64,000 bases of DNA, taken from Candidatus Iainarchaeum sp. (GTDB lineage Archaea; Iainarchaeota; Iainarchaeia; Iainarchaeales; VGJJ01). Under the pieces are notes generated by a model that was not told the origin of the DNA, searched no databases, and was given only the letters and a program-made list of their open reading frames with translations. Made by a program: the position numbers and the translations under genes. Position 1 is the first letter of the stretch. Every line of letters begins with the position of its first letter. The stretch spans positions 27,456 through 91,455 of the forward strand of contig CP064981.1 in assembly GCA_016699555.1 (NCBI GenBank), in the 5' to 3' direction. Shown piece by piece: positions 21,062-39,191 of this stretch.

Positions 21062-23425
21062 CTATTCCACTCTCGTCCCATGATCGATCGTCTTGATCAC
21101 GGGAATGGTCATCCCATCCTCATTCTTCTCGCGCTGCAAGAGATAGAGCGATCCCGTAGCGGATTTCTCTATTTCGGGATTGTGCGTGATCACGAAAATC
21201 TGATCCACCAATCCCGGCAAGCGCTCGCGGAGCATCTGCGAAAGCATGCCCACGGACTTGGTGTCGAGATTGTGCGTGGGTTCATCTAAAATCATCCAAC
21301 TCAGCTGGCGCGTCAACACGAAAGCGATGGCCATGCGCAAGGTCAGCGCAGCCGCGGAGCGTTCGCCTCCGGAAAGAGAAGACTCCACATCCACCCAATT
21401 CCCTAAACGCTCTTGCACGCGCAACACATAATCATTCTCATCCGCGACGAGCTGGGCATGGATGTAATCGCGATAGGGATAGACTTGAGGCCACAATTCC
21501 TGCAAGGCCAGATTCACCGCTTCCAATACCCACTCGCGCAATTGCTGTTGAGTGGAGATGAGTGCGTTTCCCCACACGCGCATGGCCTCCTCCACTTCCT
21601 TGGAGCGCTGCAACCGCGCCAGCATGCGCTCTTTTTCCTTCTGCATGAGATCCATCCCCTGCAGGCGTGCGTGAAGGTCCTTCAGCGCCTGTTCGATGGC
21701 AATGAGTTCGCGCTCAAATGACTGCAATTGCGTGTGCATACGCGTATGCTCTTGCGAAATGGCCACGACATCCGATTCCGAAATGGAAAACCACTCCATC
21801 TGCTTCTGGTTGGAGTCCAACTCCAACCCTATTTTCCCCAATTCCTGCACACGCAACGCATTCTGGAGGGCCAAATCGATGGCGTGCGATTCTTTTGAGA
21901 CCGCATCGAGGTCGGCTTGCGAAATGGTATTTCCCATTGCAGTTAGAGCAGCTTTTGTAGTTATTGTTTCGTTTTTTGCGGTTTCTAACTCTTTTTCCAC
22001 TCGCAACAACTCTGCACATTTTGATTTTAGCACGGCAATGGATTGTTGCTTGGATTGGTTTTCCTTTAATTCATTTTTGATTAATTGTAGTTCTTGCACC
22101 AGTGATTGTGTTTGCATTGAGAGGGATTGTTGTTCATTTTGAATGGCAGTGCGTTGTGCGTGTAATTGCAATAACAGTGATTGTTTATGCTCATTTGAAA
22201 TCGTTTGTTTACATGTGGCACAAGAAGCATGCAAGCTGGCCAGATTCTTTTCTTCTTCGTGCGAGTGTTTGAGTTTCTCTTGTAATGCGAATGACTTGGA
22301 CTTTGATTCTTGGATCAGCGATTCTTTTTCCCCAATCTTTTGCTCGCAAGAGGATAACTGTCCAAGAATCTGCGTTTCAACAAATTCAACCTCCTCTATG
22401 GTGCGATTCTGAATACTCTGAAGAAGCTGGTGATGGTTTTTTTGGAGCAACTCTTCCTTCTGGATTGCCTTTTGAAGCCTTAATTCGGCCATTTGGTGCT
22501 GTTTCTGCTTTTCAATCAGACTACGATAACGTTCCAAAACAGCCTGTTTTTGGGACTGTAAATCCGCATGGGTTTTCCCTGCGAAAGAAGGATTTTCGCT
22601 CTCAAATTGAGCCACTTGGTCGCGATACAATTGCTGCTTAGCATGCAATTGTTGCTGCTTTTCTTTCAATAACTTCAATACCTTCCAATCATCTTCCATT
22701 TTCATTTTCTTTTTAGCTAACTCGACGAGTTCATCCGCCACGCGCACTTTCTGGGATTGCAATTCCTTCAAGTGCAGCGATTGCTGCGCATGACGCGAGC
22801 GGAGCTCGTTCACATCGGTCTGCTGCAGCACCAGATCCAACTGCGCCAGCTGCGCCGCATCATTCTCTTGTTTGCGCTTGAATTGAAGCGCAACTTGATT
22901 GGCGTTGTTCCTGACGATCTCATACTTCTGCAGATCCAACAGCTCATCGAATTTCTTCTTCCGCTCGCCGGGGTTGAGCTTGAGAAAATAATCGACTTGG
23001 TTCTGTTCCGAGTAAACGCCGCGCACGAACAATTCATATGAGACGCCTAATTCCTGCTCCACTCTTTCGGTCGTTTGCGTGGGTTTAGGGCCGGCGATGA
23101 GGGTTTCATCCGCATATAACCGGCCTTCATTGATCCCATTGCGTTTCAGAACACGCTCGACCTTGTACTTCTTTCCATTCTTGGAGAAACAAACCTCGAT
23201 CTTGGCAATGTCAGCCGTTGAAGGCTTTCGCGTCAAGAGATCCTCCGAGGAGACGCGCGAGGACTTGAGCGCGGGAAAGGTCCCATAGAGGCCATAGCAG
23301 ATACCGTCGAGCACCGAAGACTTGCCTGAACCGATGACCCCCACGAGGACATTGGTTCCCTTTCTAAAATTGAAAGTAGAGCGCTTATGCGTCTTCCAAT
23401 TCTCTAAAACAAGCGAGTCGATCAT
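21062..23425 (-). CDS. rad50: Rad50 ATPase (SMC-like, zinc hook)
   Basis: N-terminal Walker A NVLVGVIGSGKSSVLDGI, long coiled coil with central CATCKQ hook, C-terminal signature SGGERSAAALTLRMAIAF and Walker B ILDEPT. Confidence 0.8.
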   Translation of the reverse strand: MIDSLVLENWKTHKRSTFNFRKGTNVLVGVIGSGKSSVLDGICYGLYGTFPALKSSRVSSEDLLTRKPSTADIAKIEVCFSKNGKKYKVERVLKRNGINEGRLYADETLIAGPKPTQTTERVEQELGVSYELFVRGVYSEQNQVDYFLKLNPGERKKKFDELLDLQKYEIVRNNANQVALQFKRKQENDAAQLAQLDLVLQQTDVNELRSRHAQQSLHLKELQSQKVRVADELVELAKKKMKMEDDWKVLKLLKEKQQQLHAKQQLYRDQVAQFESENPSFAGKTHADLQSQKQAVLERYRSLIEKQKQHQMAELRLQKAIQKEELLQKNHHQLLQSIQNRTIEEVEFVETQILGQLSSCEQKIGEKESLIQESKSKSFALQEKLKHSHEEEKNLASLHASCATCKQTISNEHKQSLLLQLHAQRTAIQNEQQSLSMQTQSLVQELQLIKNELKENQSKQQSIAVLKSKCAELLRVEKELETAKNETITTKAALTAMGNTISQADLDAVSKESHAIDLALQNALRVQELGKIGLELDSNQKQMEWFSISESDVVAISQEHTRMHTQLQSFERELIAIEQALKDLHARLQGMDLMQKEKERMLARLQRSKEVEEAMRVWGNALISTQQQLREWVLEAVNLALQELWPQVYPYRDYIHAQLVADENDYVLRVQERLGNWVDVESSLSGGERSAAALTLRMAIAFVLTRQLSWMILDEPTHNLDTKSVGMLSQMLRERLPGLVDQIFVITHNPEIEKSATGSLYLLQREKNEDGMTIPVIKTIDHGTRVE

Positions 23426-23559: not shown

Positions 23560-23820
23560 CTACAACAACGTCATCCCTTCGACTTCAACGGAGTCAACGG
23601 ATGGCATGGATTCGATTTCTTTTGTCAACGCGTCCAAGACACCATCTACCTTTTCGGGGATAGTGTAAGCGACTTTCAATACGACGATTCCAAAACCAAT
23701 CGGGGCTTCTTGGACGTCTCTGCATTCGCCGTTCTTGGCGGTGCGCAAGGCATTCTTGGTGGTTTCAAGGTCTTCCATGTCCTTGGGGTTGACTTTGTAA
23801 ATGACGATGATTTTTCCCAT
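23560..23820 (-). CDS. ef1b: Translation elongation factor aEF-1beta
   Basis: MGKIIVIYKV...start and 86-aa length are typical of archaeal EF-1beta. Confidence 0.65.
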   Translation of the reverse strand: MGKIIVIYKVNPKDMEDLETTKNALRTAKNGECRDVQEAPIGFGIVVLKVAYTIPEKVDGVLDALTKEIESMPSVDSVEVEGMTLL

Positions 23821-24167: not shown

Positions 24168-24242
24168 GGCCCCGTAGCTTAGGCTGGATAGAGCGCCAGG
24201 CTTCGGACCTGGAGGTCGGGGGTTCAAATCCCTCCGGGGTCG
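24168..24242 (+). tRNA. tRNA-Arg (anticodon TCG), no encoded CCA
   Basis: Manual cloverleaf: acceptor GGCCCCG/CGGGGUC, D-arm GCUU..GAGC, anticodon stem CCAGG/CCUGG with loop CUUCGGA (U34 C35 G36), T-arm GGGGG-UUCAAAU-CCCUC, discriminator G. TATA-like tttatag lies about 33 bp upstream. Confidence 0.8.
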
Positions 24243-24252
24243 CTTTTTTATT
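24239..24252. repeat. Left 14-bp direct repeat (TSD) gtcgcttttttatt; overlaps the last 4 nt of the tRNA-Arg and its oligo-T terminator
   Basis: Identical 14-mer at 34627..34640. Confidence 0.8.
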
Positions 24253-24284
24253 GGGATATATACAGCTGCCGCGTTTGAGACTTT
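24253..24284. repeat. Left terminal inverted repeat (32 bp) gggatatatacagctgccgcgtttgagacttt
   Basis: Exact reverse complement present at 34595..34626. Confidence 0.85.
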
Positions 24285-24322
24285 TACAACATAATTATCA
24301 GATTAATAGGGCAGTAACATTG

Positions 24323-25528
24323 CTAAAGAGAATCTGTTGAATTATTTTTGTTTGAGATTGAGTTTTCAATATTCCCTACTGGATTTATTTTATTGTAGTG
24401 GTTCCAATCATTTAGCTGTTGTATAATTCTTTCCGGAATTTTCAAGCCAAGTAGGCGATAAATTATATTTAGAATAAGACAATCAAGAAAATATTCAAAT
24501 CGATTTATTGTGTAAAACGGCATTTTTTTACGTTTAACATTTTCAATTATTATTTTTAGCAGTGGTTCTCCATGACTATAATTATTCCTAAGCTTATACG
24601 TCTCTTTAATTGTTTCATAAAATAGTTCCCATTTTAAATCAGTATATTTCCTAATGAAAACTTCAGCCTTTTTAGTAATTGTATCATCTTTAATAGTTGA
24701 AAGCAAATATTCAACATCTTCATCACTCAACTTAAATTCTTCTTTGTACTTCGTTTTTACATCAGTTCTAATTTTATTTTTGACATTTTCAAAATAGCTT
24801 TTATAATCACGCAGATGGGCGTTAATGATCATTTCAAATAAAGCCCATTGAAAAATAGCCGCGTCATGCGATTCCAAAAATTCTTTATTTCTATTAAACA
24901 AAAAATGAGTAAATAGCATTGAACTAATCCATGCAGAATTTTTTTGATATTTATTATCCCCAATTGCATCAACAAGATTTTCAATTTCTAGTCTTGTCAG
25001 CTCAAAATTTAATTTTTTATATCTCAACTTCCTGGATAAAGGGCTTTCTGTTAGATATCCTGTTTGAGTTCTCTCATCAGCAAATAAATACTTCTTCTTT
25101 GTGCCCCCTACTAGAAATTCAATTAGCTGCATTGATGACACTTCATACATTTCAGCTATGGTTAGATAGAAATCAAGTTCATGATTAGGTGTATCTGCGT
25201 TAATTTTTCGATCGTTAATTAAATCGCCAAAGTTGTGGTTTGGTTCTTTGAAGTATTCTATTAATGGAATTTTAAAAATTAAAAAATACTTGTTGTTTAA
25301 TTCATAAAATAAATCTTGGAATTCTGAAGGGTGACGCAAATCAAAGATACTTTTTGCATTGAAATATTTTTGTTCAGGAACAATTACTTTTTTGATCCCC
25401 AACTCGTTTTTACAATAGTTTTGAAAGCTTTCAACCTTAATTAATTCAAAGAAACGCGTTTTTAGTTCAGGTATTTCATTTACTGAATCAAATTGAGCAA
25501 TTACTTTCACGTCTTTTGCATTAGCCAT
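24323..25528 (-). CDS. Casposon cargo protein, possible HEPN-domain (Abi-like) protein
   Basis: C-terminal KLRNNYSHGEP contains an Rx4H HEPN-type motif; otherwise unrecognised; AT-rich codon usage. Confidence 0.4.
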   Translation of the reverse strand: MANAKDVKVIAQFDSVNEIPELKTRFFELIKVESFQNYCKNELGIKKVIVPEQKYFNAKSIFDLRHPSEFQDLFYELNNKYFLIFKIPLIEYFKEPNHNFGDLINDRKINADTPNHELDFYLTIAEMYEVSSMQLIEFLVGGTKKKYLFADERTQTGYLTESPLSRKLRYKKLNFELTRLEIENLVDAIGDNKYQKNSAWISSMLFTHFLFNRNKEFLESHDAAIFQWALFEMIINAHLRDYKSYFENVKNKIRTDVKTKYKEEFKLSDEDVEYLLSTIKDDTITKKAEVFIRKYTDLKWELFYETIKETYKLRNNYSHGEPLLKIIIENVKRKKMPFYTINRFEYFLDCLILNIIYRLLGLKIPERIIQQLNDWNHYNKINPVGNIENSISNKNNSTDSL

Positions 25529-25534
25529 AAATGG

Positions 25535-26533
25535 TCATGGATATTTTAGGAGTTGATTATTTATTTTTACAGTTGAAATATTGCAGTCAATAATATTAGA
25601 TGGTAAATTACATTGAATAATTGTAGTGGTTTTTGATTTTAGGACTCTATCAAACTCACAACTATTGCTAGCAAATGAATTTTCCATGCTATTTATATCG
25701 ATGCACGTCATCGATAGATGAGTCATAATAGCTTCGTCGTTTGTTGCATTATACAGATATATGTTTGCATTTCCATCTCGCACAATGGAACCACGAAATG
25801 GAAAATCATGGACTGTCAAATCGTAAGGGTTTGAAACGAGTTGACTTACTGGCAACATAGTGAAAATGACAACGAGAATAACCGCATAGACTCTCGAGAT
25901 TGATGTATCTTTTGACAACCCATTGAATATTTGTCGTTCCAAGTAATACAGCAACACTACAAATATTGCAAACTTAAGGAAGTCAGTACTGGTGATGACT
26001 AAATAGATTCCCCAGCCAATGAATCCCATTAGCACCAAAAATAATAGTAGACAGATAATCTTGTGTTTTTCGACGAAGTCATTTGCTCCATCCCCTAAAT
26101 TTTTTTGAACTTTCTTTAATTTAGTCTTGAGCTTTTTCAGATACCCTTCTAGGCTGGCCAAATAAATGATTATTTCAATAATTGCTTGAAGTACACTCGA
26201 TATTTTCTTGAATCCTTTATCTAACTCCTCATAGGTTCCGCGCACAATCAGAAATGCAAGTGAATAAGATAGAGTGAAAAAGTTAGTGAACATGACGATG
26301 AAGTTAAACCCATATAACTGGAATTTGTCATTCAGAATCAGTATTGAAGCTATGAAAACCAGTACGTAGGTCAAACCACCAAGCAAAATTACTTCTTTTG
26401 CAAGGTTTGTGGGGGTCGGCTCATCCTTTTCATTCCATTTCTTCGCCAAGAACAACAAGTATCCTGAAATAATCGTGAAAACGACCACCGAAGGAGTTGA
26501 AAAGATGAAGTTCTGAAAAATATCTTCAAGCAT
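25535..26533 (-). CDS. Casposon cargo polytopic membrane protein
   Basis: Roughly 7 hydrophobic helices; no domain. Confidence 0.45.
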   Translation of the reverse strand: MLEDIFQNFIFSTPSVVVFTIISGYLLFLAKKWNEKDEPTPTNLAKEVILLGGLTYVLVFIASILILNDKFQLYGFNFIVMFTNFFTLSYSLAFLIVRGTYEELDKGFKKISSVLQAIIEIIIYLASLEGYLKKLKTKLKKVQKNLGDGANDFVEKHKIICLLLFLVLMGFIGWGIYLVITSTDFLKFAIFVVLLYYLERQIFNGLSKDTSISRVYAVILVVIFTMLPVSQLVSNPYDLTVHDFPFRGSIVRDGNANIYLYNATNDEAIMTHLSMTCIDINSMENSFASNSCEFDRVLKSKTTTIIQCNLPSNIIDCNISTVKINNQLLKYP

Positions 26534-26578
26534 ATAAATGGTAAAATGGCTTCTTTTTATAATCCGAACATGAAAAAA

Positions 26579-27763
26579 TCATTCTTCGCGGACTTTCCCT
26601 AAGGTCTTTTCATATAACTTGAATATTTTTCCACTTTTTGCATTCTTTTTCATGTAATGCAATGTCCCTTTATGCAAACCATGCTCGTATGCTTTATGAT
26701 AGGGAATTGCCAGAATCTTTTGTCGCAATTCCTCTGAATCAACTCTCTTTAATTCAAACTTAGGATTGGTAAAATCAATCTCTCTCTTTTCAAAATATTT
26801 TGTAAGTTCACGTGCTTTAATGAGTATTACATTATGCCAGCTTGACATGCCTCGATCAAATTCAACTTTATTGTTGAATTGTGTTTCAATTTCCTTTAGT
26901 AGCTTCTTTGCACCACTTGGGCGCAATTTTAGATTGTAGTTTTCGGTTCGAATAAAATCTTTTGCGCTGAAAACTTCTTTTTCAATCGCTGAAATAACTG
27001 CTAAATCAATGAGAAAGCGATACGGTTCTTGTAAGTCGTAAGCCAAAGAGTTATTTCCTGAATGTTTTTCATGCATATATCCAACATGTTGATCAAGTCC
27101 GACTGCATTAATGGCCTTTAGGCATTCAGCTTCTAGAATAGAATAGCCATAGTTGAGTAAGCAATTAATTACATCACCTGCACCGCGTGGCTTCTTTTGA
27201 TATTCTCTTGTTTCAAATTCTAACTTTTCTGGGAATATTTTTGTAAGTTCTTGCCAGTAAAAGGAAGCAACTCTCCCCTCAATCATCATAATCTCAGGTA
27301 TATCTTTTACTTGTTCAATCTTATTCCATTCATTACTGAAATCCGTTTTAATTTCAGGATACTTGGGTTTGAGATAATCTAATACTAATTTTGTCCGTGC
27401 AAACTTGGCATTAATTAAAGCTTTTGAAATTTTGACACGTTCAATATAATTTTCATAAATTTTGTACTGATTAAATTTCGTTTGCACATTGGTGCTTTCA
27501 GGAGGCAATAATGTAGTTAGAAGTTTTCCATTCCAGTCTAAGAAAGAAGCCTGAATGCCATGTTTGACAAGCCAACGAATTGCATCTATGGTGATGTTTC
27601 CGTCTTGGCCATAAATAATCACATTATCCACGTCAATTCTTCGAGGTGAATAAATATATTGAGTAGGTTCTTTTCCAAATTCTGAAAAACCGTCTTTGAC
27701 ATGCAGTTTTGCTTTTTCCACTTTCAGATTAATCCCATGGCCATTAAGTAATAACAATTTCAT
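26579..27763 (-). CDS. cas1: Cas1-family integrase (casposase)
   Basis: Cas1 core MMIEGRVASFYWQ (catalytic Glu), DVINCLLNYGYSILEAECLKAINAVGLDQHVGYMHEK (His), LAYDLQEPYRFLIDLAV (Asp); 394 aa with a C-terminal extension as in casposases; no CRISPR array nearby. Confidence 0.8.
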   Translation of the reverse strand: MKLLLLNGHGINLKVEKAKLHVKDGFSEFGKEPTQYIYSPRRIDVDNVIIYGQDGNITIDAIRWLVKHGIQASFLDWNGKLLTTLLPPESTNVQTKFNQYKIYENYIERVKISKALINAKFARTKLVLDYLKPKYPEIKTDFSNEWNKIEQVKDIPEIMMIEGRVASFYWQELTKIFPEKLEFETREYQKKPRGAGDVINCLLNYGYSILEAECLKAINAVGLDQHVGYMHEKHSGNNSLAYDLQEPYRFLIDLAVISAIEKEVFSAKDFIRTENYNLKLRPSGAKKLLKEIETQFNNKVEFDRGMSSWHNVILIKARELTKYFEKREIDFTNPKFELKRVDSEELRQKILAIPYHKAYEHGLHKGTLHYMKKNAKSGKIFKLYEKTLGKVREE

Positions 27764-28119
27764 GCAACTTCACCCTTCATACTTTCTTTTGTTCTGCTAT
27801 ATGCCGCAGCATCACTTCGAATTGACTTTAACCAACCCCTTTGTTCATCTTCAAGTGTAAGAGAAAATTCGACCAAGGCTTTCTTGTATAGCTCAAGCAC
27901 GCCATGCCAACGTGAGGCTTCGAAGAAAGTACTAAATGCAGTTCTTTGATAGTCTTTTATCACCCATTTTAGCCAATGGATTGCTTTTTCGCTTTCAGCA
28001 GTTGCAAAAAGCATTAGGATTAGTTTTCCATATGCTTTGAATATGGATGCCTCGTCTACTTTTTTATCAAACTCGTTAAGTATTTTGTCAAGATTTTTTT
28101 GGACGTATCCCAGCGTCAA
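27760..28119 (-). CDS. Casposon hypothetical protein
   Basis: 119-aa ORF, ATGA-type overlap with cas1. Confidence 0.4.
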   Translation of the reverse strand: MTLGYVQKNLDKILNEFDKKVDEASIFKAYGKLILMLFATAESEKAIHWLKWVIKDYQRTAFSTFFEASRWHGVLELYKKALVEFSLTLEDEQRGWLKSIRSDAAAYSRTKESMKGEVA

Positions 28120-28582
28120 GGTGATTCATTAGTAAAATGGCGGTTGTTTCTAAAAGTTTTTCATTTTTGGTGCGCGCGACTATTCGTTCAACCTTTTCCA
28201 ATGTTTCCCAATTTAATTTTACGCGTTGTACATCTCCTAACTCCTCTAAAGCAACTAATTGTTTCTTTTCATCATCTGACGCAAGTATATCAAGAATTTT
28301 CGAGTAAAATTCGTTTTCATTTGGTAAAGTTGAAAGTGCATAAAAAATTGCATTTTCTCTTTTTTCTTTTATTCCATAAGCTTGGAAGTCATTGAATTTT
28401 ATTCGTATAATCTTCTTGTCAACATCACGCAATTCTTGGATTGCTTTGTAAATTGAGGGTTTTGATCTGCCGAGCGGCATTGCATCGCCAATTTTGCCTA
28501 TTTTTTCGAAGATTTGGTCTGAAGACTGAATCTTCTCTTTCGCCAGTAAGTCGATGATTTCTTGTTTTATGCTATCACGCAT
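28088..28582 (-). CDS. Casposon putative winged-HTH DNA-binding protein
   Basis: N-terminal SIYKAIQELRDVDKKIIRIKF helix-turn-helix-like segment. Confidence 0.4.
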   Translation of the reverse strand: MRDSIKQEIIDLLAKEKIQSSDQIFEKIGKIGDAMPLGRSKPSIYKAIQELRDVDKKIIRIKFNDFQAYGIKEKRENAIFYALSTLPNENEFYSKILDILASDDEKKQLVALEELGDVQRVKLNWETLEKVERIVARTKNEKLLETTAILLMNHLDAGIRPKKS

Positions 28583-28621
28583 GCTCTCACTTCGGTCTCT
28601 TTTGCTCTCACAATTAAGTAT

Positions 28622-28666
28622 AATTACTATAACTTATGCTATCAATTACTATATAATAGTTGCTAT
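28622..28666. promoter_or_regulatory. Divergent AT-rich intergenic region with two imperfect direct repeats (aattactata..tgctat, about 22 bp apart) between the HTH and RHH genes
   Basis: aattactata at 28622 and 28644, tgctat at 28637 and 28661; candidate operator/TATA elements. Confidence 0.3.
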
Positions 28667-28700
28667 ATTCCAGGTCTGCTCCAATGTATGTGGTGATCCC

Positions 28701-28871
28701 ATGAGTGGACGTAAACTTGTCATAACCTTGAATCCAAGCCTTAAACGTGGACTGGAGGAGGCATCAAAGCGCAGGAAATGCTCGCAAGCTGAAATTGTGC
28801 GTGGCCTCCTCTATCAAAATCTTGCCCCTTACTTGAAAGAGGTGGAAGCTGATGCCCAAACGCTTCTCTAA
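28701..28871 (+). CDS. Ribbon-helix-helix (CopG-like) DNA-binding protein
   Basis: MSGRKLVITLNPSLKRGLEEASKRRKCSQAEIVRGLLYQ is the classic RHH beta-strand plus two helices. Start chosen at ATG 28701, not the ORF-track start. Confidence 0.45.
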   Translation: MSGRKLVITLNPSLKRGLEEASKRRKCSQAEIVRGLLYQNLAPYLKEVEADAQTLL

Positions 28872-29484
28872 ACACTACAAAACTTTTTCCGACTGGAAAA
28901 AAGGACGGAAACTAACGAAATATAGTAAGAAAATAATTGAAAATCGAGCCATATTTCCAAAATCTACCTTGAAGAGGCTCAGGACTGGAATCTCCAACTT
29001 TTCCACAAAAAAATGGAATGTATTGAATTCCACTCAAAAAGTGCATCGAACAAATGCATTGAACACACTTTCTGAAATACGGAAAGGAAACTCACTCCTA
29101 AAGACGCTTAAAAAATATGGTTATTCATTAGAAAGAATAAAAGAACACTTAGGAAAAACGATTCATTTCCAAAACAATAAGTGGATTAGTAGATCACGCG
29201 ATTCAATTGAACGTTCAATGGTTATTTATGAAAATGGAAAACGAAAAGCAATTCTTGTTAATGATTCAAAGACTGCATCACGAATTGGAGAGTATTATAA
29301 TTCAGTAAAGAAGTTTTTACAAACAGGAAACGAGAAGGAATTACATAAAATAAACACAAAAATCATCGACTCAAATGGTAACACTCATTACTTAGAAACA
29401 AATCCTAAAAAGATTTTAGAAATTGAAGAAGCAAAGGAAGAACCCGAATTCACAGAAATATATTCAGAGGAAGATTCTCCATGA
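28852..29484 (+). CDS. Casposon basic Lys/Ser-rich protein immediately upstream of HNH and PolB (function unknown)
   Basis: 210-aa ORF overlapping the RHH gene stop and the HNH gene start (operon). Confidence 0.45.
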   Translation: MPKRFSKHYKTFSDWKKGRKLTKYSKKIIENRAIFPKSTLKRLRTGISNFSTKKWNVLNSTQKVHRTNALNTLSEIRKGNSLLKTLKKYGYSLERIKEHLGKTIHFQNNKWISRSRDSIERSMVIYENGKRKAILVNDSKTASRIGEYYNSVKKFLQTGNEKELHKINTKIIDSNGNTHYLETNPKKILEIEEAKEEPEFTEIYSEEDSP

Positions 29485-29813
29485 TGAAGTGTTTGCTGTG
29501 CATTGAAACTGAAGAAACAGTCCCACTTCGATTTGAAATGCACCACCTATCTGGTAGAAAATATTCTGACGAAACAGTTCCACTATGCCCAAACTGTCAC
29601 GCTAAAATAACAAAAATTCAAAACAAATTTCCTCCAAAGATACGTTCACAAAAGAATCGCAAAGACACATTAATTTTCAGTATTACAAGCACAACCGCGC
29701 TCATGAAAACGGGGGCTGAAAACGGCCTTCGTATGCTAAAAGAATTAACGGAGCTGATACAAAATGACTCAAAAAATAGCCGTGAGAATCTTGTCGAACA
29801 AGAAAAACAATGA
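29481..29813 (+). CDS. HNH endonuclease
   Basis: CLLC...HH...VPLCPNCH is the HNH zinc/ββα-Me motif. Confidence 0.7.
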   Translation: MMKCLLCIETEETVPLRFEMHHLSGRKYSDETVPLCPNCHAKITKIQNKFPPKIRSQKNRKDTLIFSITSTTALMKTGAENGLRMLKELTELIQNDSKNSRENLVEQEKQ

Positions 29814-32370
29814 AAAACAAGAGTATATTCCAAAAATTGTCTCTCCATATCAAGGCGTACTCGTTTTTGATTGTGAAACAACAACAGATGCAGTTCAAAA
29901 CCTAAAATTTGGCTCATACCAGTATCGTGTTAATGACATCATTCAAGATATTGGCATTTTTTACAACCCTACTGAGGTAACTGCAGAAGAACTAAACTAC
30001 CTTCAAACTGCTAGCAGTCAAAAACTAATCCAACTGTATACACGCGAACAATTTGTTGCCAAACTAGCTGACTACGCCCTGAAGATACGGGCACTATGTA
30101 TTGGACACAACTTGGTATTTGATATTTCGCGATTATGTGTTGGAACGGGATATTGTAGAGGCGCGTACAACAGCGGATTTTCACTCAAACTATCGGAAAA
30201 CAAAAGTATTCCTCGCATTAAAACAACGCGTATCAATGAGCGAAAAGTATTATTACGATTTGGAAAAGCATTAGATGGCACGAACTTTGGAGGCCATTTT
30301 TTAGATACCCAAACGTTAGCCTCGGCATTATTGGACACTAAACACATTTCATTGAACGCGTTGGCAAAGGAGCTTGGAATCGATGAGCAAAAATTAGAAG
30401 TAGAAAAACATGGAATGATTACACCGCATTATATTGACTATAATTTGAATGATGTGATGCTTACTTATTTGGTTTTTGCAGAACTAAAGAAAAAATATGA
30501 AGAATACGGTCTCAGCTTACCGATAACAAAAGTCATTTCAGGTGCATCCATTGGAAAAGCGTTCCTGCGAAAAATGGGAATAAAGTCTTTCCTTGAGCAA
30601 AACAAAACATTCCCCATGGAAGTATTAGGGCAATGCATGTCAGCCTATTTTGGTGGGCGTTGCGAGGTAAAAATGCGAAAAACGCCTGTACGAACAACAG
30701 TATTAGACTTCACAAGTATGTACCCAACTGTTTGTCATCTAATGAATCTTCAACGATTCATGCTAGCTAAAAGAATTGATACACAAAAAATAAATGTACA
30801 GAAACTATTAGAAGAATTGACCCCTGAAAAATTATTTGATCCAAAAACATGGCCATCACTTCTCATTTTATGCAAAATAAAACCAAACAAGGACTGTTTA
30901 CCCGTACGTAGCGACTATGGTGGAAAAACGCTCAACGTGGGAGTCAATTATTTTACATCAAGTGAATCTTTTTACTATTGGTTGCCAGACTTAGTATATA
31001 GCAAGTTCATAACTGGAAAAACCTCAGTAATTGAGGAAGCTTTGGAATTTGTTCCTGTTGATGTTCAGGAAACGGTAAAACCAATAAGTGTCTTTGATGT
31101 GGAATTTAATCCGTTGAAACATGACTTTATTCATAATCTGGTTCTACAACGAAACAAATTGAAAAAAGTGAATCCCGTTCAGGCGCAGGGATTAAAAATT
31201 TTGGCTAATGCCACTTCTTATGGCATTTTTGTCGAATTAAACCCAGAAAAAGAACCATCCCCACTAACTGTTTATTCGAGAAAAGTTTTTGAAACAAATT
31301 CTATACATGAGCAAGCAGGTGAATTCTTCAATCCGATTGTTGGCGGACTGATTGTTTCGGGGTCAAGGTTGCTATTAGGAATGATAGAGGTTGAGCTAGC
31401 AAAAATTGGCAAGACCCATTATGCGTGTGACACCGATTCAATGTTCGTTCCGCCTGAAACGGCTGATTACTTGCAAGAAAAATTTCAACCTTTATCACCT
31501 TATCAAGGACATATATATTTACACGAGAAGCAGGCAGATCAAACTCCTATATATTTACTAAAGAAGGAGTACGAAAACGTGTGGTTCTATGGTGTGAGTT
31601 CCAAAAGATATGTTCTATTCGAGAAAAAGGGCACGAAACTAAAGATTCTCGACCAAAAAGGAAAGAAAGGATACAAGCTACATGGACTTGGGTATATCCT
31701 CAATCCCTTTGGCAAAGATCCTGATTGGCATAAACAATTCTGGGAAGATGGACTGAAACTGCACTACAATCAGCTATCAGAACAGGATATCATTGCAAAG
31801 TATGGACAATACTATTGTATATCACAATTAACAGTCTCCAGTTGGGATGCTTATCGCCGATTTCGATACTTCAACAAAGGAAAACCTTTTCGAGAGCAGA
31901 TAAAACCGTTCAATTTTATGCTATTGGGGTTTGGTCAACAAAATGATGTCAAACCATTAGCACCTTACACGAAAAACTATCAAGCAATCGTTCACGAACC
32001 ATTTATTGACTACAAAACAGGCAAAACTTTGATTGGGATTGAATATTGGCAAAACTTGGCAGATGTATTTTTCAATTACTTTAATCATCCCGAAGCAAAA
32101 ATGGATGGTACTGTTGGCTTGCTAAGACTTAAGTACGTGACTTCTGACTTGACTGCTTATATAGGGAAAGAAGGGCGCGATATTGACACGCAAATCATGC
32201 GTAAAAGTCCAATTACGGCCGTTATTCCTCAAAAGGATCTGCATACATATGTATGTATGTTGACGAAAGAAGAGGCAAAGCAACTTCATATTTCACGAGC
32301 AACTTTTTATCGCTTGAAAAAGAATCCAGAGAAACTTTCTGTTGCCATAATACAAAAATTGTTACATTAA
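29764..32370 (+). CDS. polB: Family B DNA polymerase with 3'-5' exonuclease motifs (casposon PolB, likely protein-primed type)
   Basis: Exo I VFDCETT, Exo II YNLNDVMLTY, motif A LDFTSMYPTV, motif B KILANATSYGIF, motif C YACDTDSMFV. Confidence 0.85.
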   Translation: MTQKIAVRILSNKKNNEKQEYIPKIVSPYQGVLVFDCETTTDAVQNLKFGSYQYRVNDIIQDIGIFYNPTEVTAEELNYLQTASSQKLIQLYTREQFVAKLADYALKIRALCIGHNLVFDISRLCVGTGYCRGAYNSGFSLKLSENKSIPRIKTTRINERKVLLRFGKALDGTNFGGHFLDTQTLASALLDTKHISLNALAKELGIDEQKLEVEKHGMITPHYIDYNLNDVMLTYLVFAELKKKYEEYGLSLPITKVISGASIGKAFLRKMGIKSFLEQNKTFPMEVLGQCMSAYFGGRCEVKMRKTPVRTTVLDFTSMYPTVCHLMNLQRFMLAKRIDTQKINVQKLLEELTPEKLFDPKTWPSLLILCKIKPNKDCLPVRSDYGGKTLNVGVNYFTSSESFYYWLPDLVYSKFITGKTSVIEEALEFVPVDVQETVKPISVFDVEFNPLKHDFIHNLVLQRNKLKKVNPVQAQGLKILANATSYGIFVELNPEKEPSPLTVYSRKVFETNSIHEQAGEFFNPIVGGLIVSGSRLLLGMIEVELAKIGKTHYACDTDSMFVPPETADYLQEKFQPLSPYQGHIYLHEKQADQTPIYLLKKEYENVWFYGVSSKRYVLFEKKGTKLKILDQKGKKGYKLHGLGYILNPFGKDPDWHKQFWEDGLKLHYNQLSEQDIIAKYGQYYCISQLTVSSWDAYRRFRYFNKGKPFREQIKPFNFMLLGFGQQNDVKPLAPYTKNYQAIVHEPFIDYKTGKTLIGIEYWQNLADVFFNYFNHPEAKMDGTVGLLRLKYVTSDLTAYIGKEGRDIDTQIMRKSPITAVIPQKDLHTYVCMLTKEEAKQLHISRATFYRLKKNPEKLSVAIIQKLLH

Positions 32371-33065
32371 TTTTCAATTTCCTTATCTATTATAGTTATT
32401 ATCTCGTCCAAGTAACGAATAAGCTGATTAAGTGATTCTTCAGTAGCATCGACACCTAACTTTTCTTTATTAGCAATTAATTCCAATTTATCTTTTGCAT
32501 TTTGAAATCTTATTTTTACGCCTAAGAAAATGTCTTTTGCTTCTTCATAGTCAACTTTTGTCGGATTATTGACAAGCAGTATCTTCTTCCCGCCAGTTAC
32601 AAAATCTTCTAAACCTTTCACAACTTCCTCTTGAATATCTAAACTCAATTGGAGATCCGTACGAAGTTGCTGATCATATGTGAGCACTTCTTTTGTTTTG
32701 CCTAAAAGCCACCGCATCTCTGATAATTCCGCCTTTGCTAAAGGAATAATTGCATCAGCTTCATCAAAATGGTTGAATTCTATGTAAGCAAAAATTACTC
32801 CAAGATAATATGCAAAAGAGGCGTGGCGTCTTTCATAATCAATACTAATTTCTTTTACTTTTTCTAATTCTATATTATAATTATTTATTCCTGCTTCTAA
32901 ATTTTGGATTTGCTCTTTTTGGGACTGTGTTTCAAAATAAAGATTTCCTGCAGCAATCAATAGAAATAATAGTATCACTCCGTATATCCCTTGAGTTGAG
33001 GGGTTTTGATGATTTTGCATAGTGCTTGATCTCGTATGGTTTTTTTCGTCCATTGTAACGTTCAC
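32367..33065 (-). CDS. Casposon membrane-anchored coiled-coil protein
   Basis: N-terminal TM helix (IYGVILLFLLIAAGNLYF) plus coiled coil. Confidence 0.4.
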   Translation of the reverse strand: MNVTMDEKNHTRSSTMQNHQNPSTQGIYGVILLFLLIAAGNLYFETQSQKEQIQNLEAGINNYNIELEKVKEISIDYERRHASFAYYLGVIFAYIEFNHFDEADAIIPLAKAELSEMRWLLGKTKEVLTYDQQLRTDLQLSLDIQEEVVKGLEDFVTGGKKILLVNNPTKVDYEEAKDIFLGVKIRFQNAKDKLELIANKEKLGVDATEESLNQLIRYLDEIITIIDKEIEN

Positions 33066-33135
33066 CCAGGCTCAAAACTACGTTCGTTACGTTGATGTTA
33101 CGCTACTACTTATTAAGGGGTTATGCACCCCTTAT

Positions 33136-33387
33136 ATGTACGAACTTCTGAGCTACATTCGAAGAAGCTCAATAAAACGCAAAATTCTACAAAATTTACA
33201 GGAAGCTAAAACTCCAACAGATTTGAAGAAGGCTCTAGGGGTTCATAGGGAAAGTATCTCAAGGGCACTATTAGAGTTGGAGGAAAGAGGACTAGTTGAA
33301 TGTCTGACCCCAGACCAACCAAATTATCGCTATTACAAAATTACAGAAAAAGGAGATAAACTGTGTAAGCAGCTGAAAAATTACTGA
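33136..33387 (+). CDS. Small winged-HTH transcriptional regulator (PadR/ArsR-like)
   Basis: MYELLSYIRRSSIKRKILQNL...RALLELEERGLVEC; start at the internal ATG 33136. Confidence 0.45.
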   Translation: MYELLSYIRRSSIKRKILQNLQEAKTPTDLKKALGVHRESISRALLELEERGLVECLTPDQPNYRYYKITEKGDKLCKQLKNY

Positions 33388-34508
33388 ATTAGAACATGAT
33401 CCTCATCTAGTGAAGAACTCCAAACTTCGCTTTTCCATTTTTTCTTCCTTTTTGTTGGCATGTAAAAATTGTGGCTATCTTCCTCGATTTGTTTTAGCAT
33501 TTTTCTAATATTCTTCTCAAGTTCTGTTTTTGGTTTATACTTATATATTTTGCCATAAGCATTTGGGATCTTTTTAGCAATTTTTTTAGCCCACTCCACT
33601 TTCGGAATTTCAATTTTGGGGTCATATACCTTGATTGTTGCTAAAATATCTTTTTTTGACTTATTAGTTCTCTTAATTTCCTTAATGCTAATTTCTTTAT
33701 TGATTAGTTCTGATAACAACGGAATTGAAAAATCAACTGGCACCGAATCTTCAAAATTTTTCTTCCAAATAATAACTCTTCGCTTATCAATTAAACCAGC
33801 AGACACTAAATCATTTACAAATGAAATTACAGATTTATCATAATCAAGAACTAAGTAGTATTGAATGCCAGGAATCCTATATCTTCCAAGCAGTTCTTTT
33901 ATGGCTTGCTTCTTTACAGCGTCCTTGCCTTGTAAATTGATAATCTCATGGTCTCGAAATAGATTGAATTGATTTTTGTTAAAAAGAATTTCAAATGCTT
34001 CTTTCTCCGACTCGCCTTCAACCAGAATATAAAATTTAGGCTTTAAATCTTTTTGAAGTTTACCTAAACTAACAGTAAACTTGCTTACACCTTGAAGTAA
34101 TAAACCACTCCAGACTAAATGATTTGTTAATTGCATACCCTCATGATAATGCATCCTATCGTCAGTAGTGTAGTTATCTACCCACCTTACAGAAGCCCAG
34201 TGTACTTCAATAAATGAAAGAGATAATTTTACCAGTATTTCAACGTAATACTGATTTTGCAAATCAAATAGATATTGCACTGAATCAATAAAATTGTTTA
34301 AAAGTGTTTTTAGTTTTGGACAACTATCCATTGTCCCCCTATGTCCAAATACACAACTTCTCCCTCTTTTTGGATAACATGCGGGAAGATGACCTCCCAG
34401 GTGGGTTTTTAGATCTTCTAAAGTGTTAACATTTCTGAAGTCTAACTCTTGATTCATTGCCATCCAAAAAATTTTCAGCGACTTCGCATTGACAGAAACA
34501 TCTTTCAT
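33381..34508 (-). CDS. Casposon cargo protein with a C-terminal Toprim-like domain (OLD/DUF4435-like)
   Basis: FYILVEGESEKEAF (Toprim Glu) followed about 55 aa later by YYLVLDYDKSV (DxD); N-terminal Cys/His-rich segment. Confidence 0.4.
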   Translation of the reverse strand: MKDVSVNAKSLKIFWMAMNQELDFRNVNTLEDLKTHLGGHLPACYPKRGRSCVFGHRGTMDSCPKLKTLLNNFIDSVQYLFDLQNQYYVEILVKLSLSFIEVHWASVRWVDNYTTDDRMHYHEGMQLTNHLVWSGLLLQGVSKFTVSLGKLQKDLKPKFYILVEGESEKEAFEILFNKNQFNLFRDHEIINLQGKDAVKKQAIKELLGRYRIPGIQYYLVLDYDKSVISFVNDLVSAGLIDKRRVIIWKKNFEDSVPVDFSIPLLSELINKEISIKEIKRTNKSKKDILATIKVYDPKIEIPKVEWAKKIAKKIPNAYGKIYKYKPKTELEKNIRKMLKQIEEDSHNFYMPTKRKKKWKSEVWSSSLDEDHVLIQ

Positions 34509-34594
34509 TTAACAAGCAACTGTTTTTCTAATTTAATCTTATATGGTATTGATGAGAAAAAAATAGCCCCACACCATTACCAAATTATGTTGTG

Positions 34595-34626
34595 AAAGTC
34601 TCAAACGCGGCAGCTGTATATATCCC
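34595..34626. repeat. Right terminal inverted repeat (32 bp), exact reverse complement of the left TIR
   Basis: aaagtctcaaacgcggcagctgtatatatccc. Confidence 0.85.
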
Positions 34627-34640
34627 GTCGCTTTTTTATT
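34627..34640. repeat. Right 14-bp direct repeat (TSD) gtcgcttttttatt
   Basis: Identical to 24239..24252. Confidence 0.8.
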
Positions 34641-37802: not shown

Positions 37803-39191
37803 TCAGAGGAAACTTTCCTTGCCTTTTAAGAATGCGCTCAGGGCATGCTGGAAGGATTTGTTCTTCTTGGCCAGCGCGATAATCTGCCCTTCATCGAGGA
37901 GCGCGAACTGGTGCAGCGCCTCGCGCAGGGGAGATTTCTCGGTCTGCGCGGTCAGTTGCGCCTCTTCCTTCAACGCACCCTTGAACTCCGGGAACGCGCG
38001 TGGGATCTCGAGCACGACTTTACCTTCCTCGATGCGCGGCCCCGAAAGCGGTTTGGGGTGGGCGCGCAGGAAATGCTCGACATGCGTGGCATCGAAGACG
38101 CTCGGACCGATGCGGAGCTTGGATGATTGTAACGATGGGTTTTCCACATCAAAAATGATGAACGCGTGCTCCTGGCCATCCGTCCAGAAGAAATGACGGC
38201 GGATACAATAGTCTTTCGCCTCCAATCCGTGCTGCATCTTCTTGCTCACGCGCAATAGCTGCCCCCACATCACGTCTTCAACGGTCTCCTTGGGAAAAGG
38301 GAAATGAATGCCCATGAGCTCCTGCATCGCGAGGTGCGACTTGATCTGGGGCAGCGTCATGCTGGGAGATTCATGCGCGAAAAAGAATCTCTCTTTCGGC
38401 GCCGCAAGGAATTGGCGCGCGGCCATGATCATGCGCGCGAATTGGTTGAATGAAAGCGCGGCCGCGACGTTGCGGGACATATCAGTAGGATCGATGACGA
38501 GCAAATGCGTATTGTTGAATTGCTTGAGCGCATCCTGCGGAGTGGAGTGCTGTTCCTCCAAGTCGATCACGGTGTTGTTCTTCCATTGACTCATGGCTTG
38601 AACGGCTTTGAGGAAGGTGCCGTATCGGAGAATGAGGATCTCCACGAGATAGCCCGGCACGCCCTGGTTCTTGACGTCGGCGCCATAGGCCTGGATCCCT
38701 TTGAGGAATTGCTTCAAGAGACGCACTTCCCCGCATTGCTGCTTGGAGAGGTGCTTGCGCATGTATTGGGCATGAAAGGGAGTCCGGTCCACCGCCGAGA
38801 GCTTGTCGCTCGCTTTTTCGACTTTGTAGGTGGGGACGATTTCCACGTCAAACCCGTCGATGTTCCCGCGCACGTAGGGGTGTTCCGAATAGACTTCCTC
38901 ATGGAAGTGCTTGCCGAAAATCTTGTGCGCGAGCTGTAATCCGTTCTTCTCGAACGATTCGCGTTTGAGTTTGGGAGAATAGAAAACGAAAATATCCAAG
39001 TCCCTGTCCCCGCGCAAATGCGTATTGCGGGCCATGCTGCCGCACAGCAGCGCAGAGAGATGCGGTCCCTTCGTCTTCTTGATTTCGCGCAACAATCGGC
39101 GCACCATCGCCTGTTCGGCTCTGGCGTCGCTGGGGGACGGAGTGATCCGCTTGCGGACCTTGCTCAGAAAACCAAATGATGGGGAGGCCAT
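37803..39191 (-). CDS. cca: CCA-adding tRNA nucleotidyltransferase, archaeal class I
   Basis: LCGSMARNTHLRGDRDLDIFVFY nucleotidyltransferase motif; about 460 aa archaeal CCA architecture. Confidence 0.8.
   Translation of the reverse strand: MASPSFGFLSKVRKRITPSPSDARAEQAMVRRLLREIKKTKGPHLSALLCGSMARNTHLRGDRDLDIFVFYSPKLKRESFEKNGLQLAHKIFGKHFHEEVYSEHPYVRGNIDGFDVEIVPTYKVEKASDKLSAVDRTPFHAQYMRKHLSKQQCGEVRLLKQFLKGIQAYGADVKNQGVPGYLVEILILRYGTFLKAVQAMSQWKNNTVIDLEEQHSTPQDALKQFNNTHLLVIDPTDMSRNVAAALSFNQFARMIMAARQFLAAPKERFFFAHESPSMTLPQIKSHLAMQELMGIHFPFPKETVEDVMWGQLLRVSKKMQHGLEAKDYCIRRHFFWTDGQEHAFIIFDVENPSLQSSKLRIGPSVFDATHVEHFLRAHPKPLSGPRIEEGKVVLEIPRAFPEFKGALKEEAQLTAQTEKSPLREALHQFALLDEGQIIALAKKNKSFQHALSAFLKGKESFL

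Follow-up and report, generated by a model that had tools for sequence, protein, structure and literature searches.

A single-gene, ATPase-less OLD-type Toprim protein carried as cargo by a casposon of Candidatus Iainarchaeum

A casposon in the genome of Candidatus Iainarchaeum sp. ends, on its right side, next to a gene deposited as a hypothetical protein, which raises the question of what this protein is and whether it belongs to the machinery of the element or travels with it. The gene lies in a 64,000-nt stretch of DNA, analysed here at its full length and referred to as the window (assembly GCA_016699555.1, contig CP064981.1, positions 27,456 to 91,455). Casposons are the ancestors of the CRISPR adaptation modules, and OLD-type Toprim nucleases are the central effectors of P2 Old, Gabija, PARIS, retron Eco8, AbiL and MADS. 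To our knowledge, in every characterised OLD-type Toprim system detection of the trigger and control of the nuclease are both the task of an ATP-binding cassette (ABC) ATPase. A preliminary description of the window had read the gene as casposon cargo encoding a Toprim-like protein of the OLD/DUF4435 type, resembling the Gabija protein GajA, and as a candidate nuclease or defence gene. Here, we show that the protein is homologous to OLD-type Toprim proteins, that it has no ABC ATPase of its own or in its neighbourhood, and that the gene is cargo. With a probability of roughly 0.6, we take it to be a single-chain, ATPase-less OLD-type Toprim nuclease that serves as accessory casposon cargo in conflict or defence.

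An OLD-type Toprim domain without an ATPase

The gene (33381-34508, minus strand) encodes 375 aa from an ATG start and does adjoin the right terminal inverted repeat (TIR), as first described, with 74 nt between its start codon and the inner edge of the repeat at 34583. Its product is 100% identical to 'hypothetical protein IPJ89_00385' (P0001) from a Candidatus Iainarchaeum archaeon metagenome-assembled genome (MAG). The two motifs on which the Toprim assignment had been based are found at residues 161-168 (ILVEGESE, nt 34005-34028) and 219-224 (LVLDYD, nt 33837-33854), and the spacing given as about 55 residues is 58 when measured from E164 to D222. Pfam matches the OLD-like_TOPRIM family PF20469 to residues 160-224 with E=1.1e-4, at 23.1 bits just under the cutoff of 23.2, and PADLOC reports weak similarity to AbiLii (1.7e-4) and mad4 (7e-3), while an NCBIfam scan returned only noise. 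The DUF4435 half of the assignment is not borne out, there being no match to this family in Pfam.

Relatives of the protein are rare. An indexed search of 5.8 billion proteins returned only the window protein itself and two relatives, at 43% and 39% identity (P0003 at 39%), and a search of the three-sequence alignment against GTDB genomes and IMG/VR found no related loci. Exhaustive HMMER searching with the three-sequence profile recovered 164 proteins at E<=1e-3, which fall into two architectures. The first, of 340-390 aa, comprises about 60 cluster representatives that align over nearly their full length. In the second, of about 580-610 aa, only the C-terminal stretch of about 160 residues aligns; these are canonical OLD proteins, with an AAA_15/AAA_21 ABC ATPase followed by PF20469, and the profile reaches them at E-values down to 4e-16 over query positions 163-325. 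When 33 relatives of the first architecture were scanned with Pfam, 22 matched PF20469 and seven DUF3226, and none matched a Toprim family of the primase (DnaG) type. Searches of PDB sequences with the single protein, the 33-sequence family profile or a profile of the N-terminal domain gave no OLD match.

A structural model points in the same direction as the profile. The AlphaFold 2 (AF2) model m9e8b9a64f329, built on the 33-sequence alignment, has a predicted local distance difference test (pLDDT) score of 84.8 and a predicted TM-score of 0.75, and supersedes an earlier run on three sequences that was unusable at a pLDDT of 51. The Toprim fold is a parallel beta-sheet of four strands with flanking helices, with a Glu after beta1 and a Gly following beta2, both invariant, and a DxD motif (PMC6755086). 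In the model, the core at residues 158-248 runs beta-alpha-beta-alpha-beta-alpha-beta with strands at 158-163, 186-191, 215-222 and 245-248, and E164, G194 and D222 are present in all 33 relatives and D224 in 29. A Foldseek search of the PDB puts GajA at the head of its list (8jq9_A, E=3.8e-3, probability 0.99), with another four GajA entries among the top 25. As the alignments cover just half of each protein, the global TM-scores are low. The structure-prediction check thus yielded a confidently modelled Toprim core whose motifs are conserved in the relatives. Taken with the Pfam match, the homology of the profile to OLD proteins and the conserved catalytic columns, the motifs are more than chance, and the protein is an OLD-type Toprim homolog. 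From the PF20469 match, the secondary structure and the conservation we place the Toprim core at residues 156-250 (33759-34043, minus strand), with E164 at 34017-34019, E168 at 34005-34007, G194 at 33927-33929, D222 at 33843-33845 and D224 at 33837-33839. It is followed by a helical domain at residues 251-349 (33462-33758, minus strand; 252-349 in the AF2 model), which holds E253 (33750-33752) and K303 (33600-33602).

The active site of OLD nucleases has been worked out in BpOLD and in the Thermus scotoductus protein TsOLD. Metal A is bound by E400, D455 and D457 in BpOLD and by E377, D431 and D433 in TsOLD, metal B by E404 and E508 or by D381 and E480, respectively, the first of each pair standing four positions behind the Toprim Glu and the second shortly behind the core, and a basic residue, K562 or R487, is found at the scissile phosphate (PMC6755086, PMC7049728); the ligands of both metals have been tested by mutagenesis in both proteins (PMC7049728, PMC6755086). 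In the window family, E253 and K303 are, like E164, G194 and D222, invariant among the 33 relatives, and position 168 is Glu in 30 and Asp in three. The Glu and DxD signature originally proposed therefore stands for E164 and D222, but less strictly for D224, which is Ser in P0003. When 21 ATPase-fused OLD proteins are aligned together with the family, the same columns are invariant in them except those of D224 (10/21) and E253 (20/21), with Glu at position 168 and Lys at position 303 in every one of the 21. One of these fused proteins, P0042, aligns directly to TsOLD (6p74), with IEGDSEE opposite VEGYGD (E377/D381), and so links the window protein to residues that mutagenesis has probed.

The assignments in the helical domain are more indirect. 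E253 stands in the motif W-x-K-x-F-E-D and is equated with BpOLD E508 by position and order, and K303 opens a helix some 50 residues further on, compared with 54 residues between E508 and K562 in BpOLD. By analogy, K303 is probably the equivalent of the catalytic lysine K562, and E253 a putative metal-B-type ligand like E508. Judged from its sequence, the protein has in its C-terminal 220 residues a genuine OLD-type catalytic module whose set of active-site residues is intact, and this module itself is already known. In it, E164, D222 and D224 would bind metal A, E168 and E253 metal B, and K303 would act as the transition-state lysine, a complete two-metal set from which Mg2+-dependent phosphodiester cleavage is to be expected; the predicted nuclease activity draws on these intact catalytic residues.

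What distinguishes the family is the other half of the protein. In the AF2 model, residues 1-155 (34044-34508, minus strand) form a family-specific domain, which stands where canonical OLD proteins carry the ABC ATPase and has no match in Pfam, as is true of the N-terminal half of all 33 relatives. The model gives it a beta-hairpin (12-23), a helix (30-38), a low-confidence Cys loop (44-63) and three long helices (64-152). The Cys/His-rich segment already noticed in the preliminary description corresponds to residues 36-63 (34320-34403, minus strand; H36, H40, C44, C52, H56 and C63); the family shares the motif C-x2-3-C-x5-6-C-x8-17-C. C44, C52 and C63 are present in 33/33; the second Cys is present in 30/33 when counted by column and in 32/33 by motif match, by which the window copy alone lacks it and keeps three. 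Searched alone, the N-terminal domain found no relatives in the PDB or the protein database and no other architectures.

The missing Cys is the starting point for an alternative in which the gene is a passenger in decay or without activity: one of bacterial type that was acquired horizontally, with a broken metal site in its N-terminal domain and no function in an archaeon. The identity of only 39-44% to the nearest relatives, the loss of a Cys that 32 of the 33 relatives retain, and the bacterial look of the other genomic contexts (RF-1, Tn7-like, TPS/ShlB, Sulfurimonas) would fit such a history. However, the reading frame is full length and co-linear with those of the relatives (375 versus 383/384 aa), all seven catalytic residues are intact, the GC content of 32% matches that of the casposon and so argues against recent acquisition, and H40 or H56 could stand in for the lost Cys as a ligand. 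We consider decay improbable and continue with an intact protein.

No sign of an ABC ATPase was found in the window protein, which matches no P-loop family, AAA_15, AAA_21 and SMC_N included, and has no Walker A motif, and the neighbouring genes in the window and in the loci of seven relatives include no adjacent Walker-A or ATPase protein and none conserved between loci. We also considered a conserved partner of another kind, such as the genes of about 165 aa that lie downstream in three loci. As with an adjacent ATPase, this was rejected: the neighbours are dissimilar and no Walker A is adjacent. The architecture, an OLD-type Toprim domain joined to a Cys4-helical N-terminal domain in a single gene, with no ATPase in cis or nearby, is not represented in Pfam or PADLOC v2.

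Comparison with known OLD-type systems

Class 1 OLD proteins (P2 Old, TsOLD and the Vibrio cholerae protein VcOLD) resemble the window protein in being single-gene systems that are often found on mobile elements, and share with its family the OLD-type Toprim domain and the two-metal residue set; it is also to TsOLD (6p74) that the closest ATPase-fused relatives align. In class 1, sensing and activation fall to an N-terminal ABC ATPase into which a dimerisation domain is inserted (PMC7049728; bioRxiv 10.64898/2026.07.10.737580), whereas the window protein has no such ATPase. The two also differ in the basic residue, which in TsOLD is an Arg from a loop; its probable counterpart in the window family is a Lys on a helix of the helical domain, as it is in Class 2.

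Class 2 OLD proteins, including GajA and BpOLD, are closer in this respect. As in the window family, their Toprim domain precedes a helical domain. From it come an acidic ligand of metal B and the catalytic Lys, as would also be the case in the window family, and the series E400/E404/D455/D457/E508/K562 of BpOLD matches the E-x3-E, DxD, E and K of the family. GajA is the best match of the window protein among solved structures, and the comparison with GajA made at the outset is upheld to that extent. It does not extend to the architecture: GajA has an ATPase domain and the window protein has none, no GajB/UvrD-like helicase lies beside the window gene or in the loci of the seven relatives, and the PADLOC models for GajA match members of the family marginally or not at all. 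An N-terminal ABC ATPase fused to Toprim, by which the OLD family (Classes 1-3) is strictly defined, is carried by the fused relatives and is absent from the window protein.

ATPase-less Toprim polypeptides of similar size (about 300-375 aa) are also found in split systems that are Class-4-like, namely as AriB of PARIS, AbiLii and mad4 of MADS. These are encoded next to, and controlled by, the partner ABC ATPases AriA, AbiLi and mad3 (PMC12409363), whereas the window family has no ATPase gene alongside. It further differs from them in its unique Cys4-helical N-terminal domain and in having no DUF4435 match. Membership of a DUF4435/AriB group was accordingly rejected, on the missing Pfam match and the missing partner ATPase.

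The host casposon and its cargo

The casposon spans 24253-34626 (10,374 bp) and has exact bounds in the window. Its TIRs of 44 nt, at 24253-24296 on the left and 34583-34626 on the right, are 98% complementary, and it is flanked by two identical 14-bp copies of the target-site duplication (TSD) GTCGCTTTTTTATT, at 24239-24252 and 34627-34640. On the left, the duplication extends over the final 5 nt of a tRNA-Arg(TCG) gene predicted by ARAGORN (24168-24243, plus strand), the integration target. The core genes encode the Cas1 casposase (26579-27763, minus strand; Pfam Cas_Cas1, E=3.7e-63), a family-B DNA polymerase (PolB; 29764-32370, plus strand) with a C-terminal helix-turn-helix (HTH; HTH_26 at residues 838-866), and a small HNH-type protein (29481-29813, plus strand) with CxxC...HH...CxxCH motifs in its translation. 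Exonuclease and YxDTDS motifs are visible in the translation of PolB, which is about 40% identical to the PolB open reading frames (ORFs) of related casposon loci (E=0); the HNH-type protein is common to five such loci. The casposon of the preliminary description is therefore real, and with Cas1, PolB, TIRs, a 14-bp TSD at a tRNA 3' end and HNH the element is family-2-like; integration next to the 3' end of a tRNA gene, with a TSD of about 14-15 bp, is among the hallmarks of that family (Krupovic et al. 2014, PMC4046053). A perfect TSD and TIRs that are 98% complementary fit an insertion that is recent and may still be mobile. The GC content of the casposon is 34.7%, compared with about 52% on both flanks, and that of the Toprim gene (32.4%) is like the casposon and unlike the flanks.

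Whether the Toprim gene belongs to the core was addressed by comparison with 22 related casposase loci (L008-L029), each covered over +/-10 kb. Cas1, PolB, HNH and proteins of 210 and 105 aa have counterparts in these loci, whereas the Toprim gene has none in 22, and neither do the genes next to it, for a winged-helix (wHTH) regulator and a protein of 232 aa, or those on the left arm, for proteins of 401 and 332 aa. The absence of the Toprim gene holds for the family profile and a Toprim-only profile at E<=1 and for blastp at 1e-3. The casposon gene repertoire of 2014 likewise lists no Toprim or OLD gene (PMC4046053), and a literature search for casposons together with Toprim or OLD found no paper describing such cargo in the library covered. 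Having no counterpart in related casposons, the Toprim gene is cargo, as had been claimed: an optional, accessory passenger outside the transposition and replication core.

The same comparison weighs on an alternative in which the gene assists transposition or replication, either as a nuclease that processes or nicks the TIR ends or as a DnaG-like primase for RNA-primed synthesis by PolB. Its place 74 nt from the right TIR would suit such a task, a Cys cluster followed by Toprim superficially recalls the layout of bacterial DnaG, and an external primase is presumed necessary for the PolBs of family-2 casposons (PMC4046053). Yet the gene is missing from the 22 loci, among which Cas1, PolB and HNH are shared, all other members of the family that were found lie outside casposons, and the invariant K303 and E253 are specific to OLD (PMC6755086). 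Nor does Pfam ever report a DnaG or primase Toprim, only OLD-like_TOPRIM and DUF3226; the DnaG-like primase was rejected on this ground and on the absence of the gene from related casposons. We regard an accessory role in transposition or replication as very improbable, and retain accessory cargo as the preferred reading.

The wHTH gene (33022-33387, plus strand; Pfam HVO_A0261_N at 7.2e-9, HTH_45 at 4.9e-6) is also cargo. The two genes converge, with a 7-nt overlap at the 3' end of the Toprim gene, and the wHTH protein is a possible local regulator. Beside the left TIR lies the gene for the 401-aa protein (24323-25528, minus strand), with the motif LRNNYSHGEP (Rx4H, HEPN-like) near its C-terminus, which makes it a candidate for another nuclease-type gene in the cargo. 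Next comes the 332-aa protein (25535-26533), a multi-pass membrane protein. Neither Pfam nor PADLOC gave anything usable for the 401-, 332- and 232-aa proteins.

The element shares its TIRs, 14-bp TSD at a tRNA gene, Cas1, PolB-HTH and HNH with the family-2 casposons of Methanolobus and Methanosarcina and with AciBoo-C1, and differs from the described family-2 repertoire (PMC4046053) in its OLD-type Toprim cargo. It differs also in its host: family-2 casposons are known from Euryarchaeota, while the genome here is labelled Candidatus Iainarchaeum (DPANN) and the window protein comes from a 1.05-Mb contig of a MAG. The closest casposases, 49-56% identical, are all from Methanosarcinales (Methanolobus, Methanosalsum and Methanohalophilus). 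A Methanosarcinales-like casposase in a DPANN genome with 52% GC flanks suggests transfer of the casposon between phyla, for which a route between DPANN symbiont and host is conceivable. Judged by eye from the translations, the host flanks encode a Rad50/SMC-like protein of 787 aa with a Walker A motif (21062-23425, minus strand), a small EF-1-beta-like ORF (23560-23820, minus strand) and a CCA-adding-enzyme-like ORF (37803-39191, minus strand); such housekeeping-looking archaeal ORFs are consistent with a chromosomal insertion site.

Context of the relatives and predicted function

Among the copies seen, only that in the window comes from an archaeon, and only it is carried by a casposon. In about seven loci, family members have restriction-modification, toxin-antitoxin, STAND or nuclease genes as neighbours or occupy cargo positions on mobile elements. 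P0003 lies directly downstream of the Res subunit of a Type III restriction system (PADLOC REase_III, 6.9e-78). P0002 lies between a PemK/MazE pair with a 344-aa gene on one side and an N6/N4-methyltransferase (MTase)-Mrr fusion on the other, on a contig that also encodes bacterial release factor 1 (RF-1); this arrangement recurs in two further samples (L001, L002 and L030, three in all), and a search of JGI metagenomes found only a copy of it (the L001 type). A Tn7-like transposon (TnsA, TnsB, TniB and TniQ) has P0160 among its cargo, near an Mrr-nSTAND3 gene. P0161, from Sulfurimonas aquatica (L004), is part of an integrase/terminase island with SNase, Endonuclease_1, HNH and GIY-YIG genes. 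P0154 is found beside two large serine recombinases and P0070 among uncharacterised genes. The suggestion that homologs might sit in defence islands is supported by the Type III Res, the MTase-Mrr with PemK/MazE, and the Mrr-nSTAND3 gene on the Tn7-like transposon. The family is a single-gene module moving between mobile elements and defence-type islands.

Several features of these loci are recorded here in their own right. The 344-aa gene directly upstream of P0002 (L001 4217-5251, plus strand) encodes a protein that starts HLVLLGAGASKA and has a SIR2-like GAGxS motif; it has no Pfam or PADLOC match, and could be a local partner of the Toprim gene in the P0002 sub-lineage only. The Type III subunit upstream of P0003 (L003 2-2359, plus strand) carries an unusual C-terminal fusion to Peptidase_S24 (LexA/UmuD-like). 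The cargo of the Tn7-like transposon (L007 1-12805) consists of Metallophos, the Toprim family member, Mrr_cat-nSTAND3 and Endonuclease_1, and the Endonuclease_1 homologs near family members in L007 and L004 are 50% identical over 80 aa.

By analogy with this context, a defence role is most likely for the protein. On a casposon, it would act as a conflict or defence nuclease that excludes viruses or rival elements or brings about abortive infection, like the old gene of the P2 prophage. The N-terminal domain, with its beta-hairpin, four-Cys metal knuckle and three-helix stalk, would replace the ABC-ATPase sensor, and would most likely provide oligomerisation, recognition of the trigger or substrate, or both. 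DNA is cut or nicked by GajA, TsOLD, BpOLD and VcOLD (PMC10568477, PMC12392090), and P2 OLD and AriB are tRNases in vivo (PMC12445682, PMC12409363, bioRxiv 10.64898/2026.07.10.737580); by analogy, either DNA or tRNA is a candidate substrate. Of the earlier proposal of a nuclease or defence cargo gene, the cargo status and the intact catalytic residues are observed, and we infer the nuclease activity and the defence role from them and from the context of the relatives.

The contexts also bear on the possibility that the protein, instead of shielding the host, keeps the casposon stable as an addiction or selfish toxin, by post-segregational killing or exclusion of empty sites, and is held in check by, for example, the convergent wHTH gene. 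Members of the family always occur within mobile elements or islands, OLD-type nucleases are toxic when active (PMC12445682), one relative (P0002) is next to the PemK/MazE toxin-antitoxin pair, and the wHTH gene overlaps the 3' end of the Toprim gene convergently. Against this, no antitoxin-like neighbour is conserved across the loci, and the wHTH gene is beside none of the relatives, and we think addiction unlikely as the principal role. Addiction and defence are compatible, overlapping readings, which the context data do not separate.

A defence nuclease as accessory cargo remains the reading we prefer. More tentatively, the window copy may be the founding archaeal and casposon-borne case of an unrecognised single-protein immune or conflict system, in which an OLD-type Toprim domain is placed under a Cys4-helical sensor in place of an ABC ATPase. 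If so, casposons carry stand-alone defence nucleases from one domain of life to another, in this instance from bacteria into a DPANN archaeon by way of a Methanosarcinales-related element, and a defence-type nuclease is added to the known repertoire of casposon cargo. An exactly bounded family-2-like casposon in a DPANN genome bears on the movement of elements and their cargo between archaeal phyla. At about 350-385 aa, the protein offers a compact enzyme for studying the choice between DNA and tRNA as substrate, and a conserved ATPase-less family with the full set of catalytic residues would show a second way to control an OLD-type Toprim effector.

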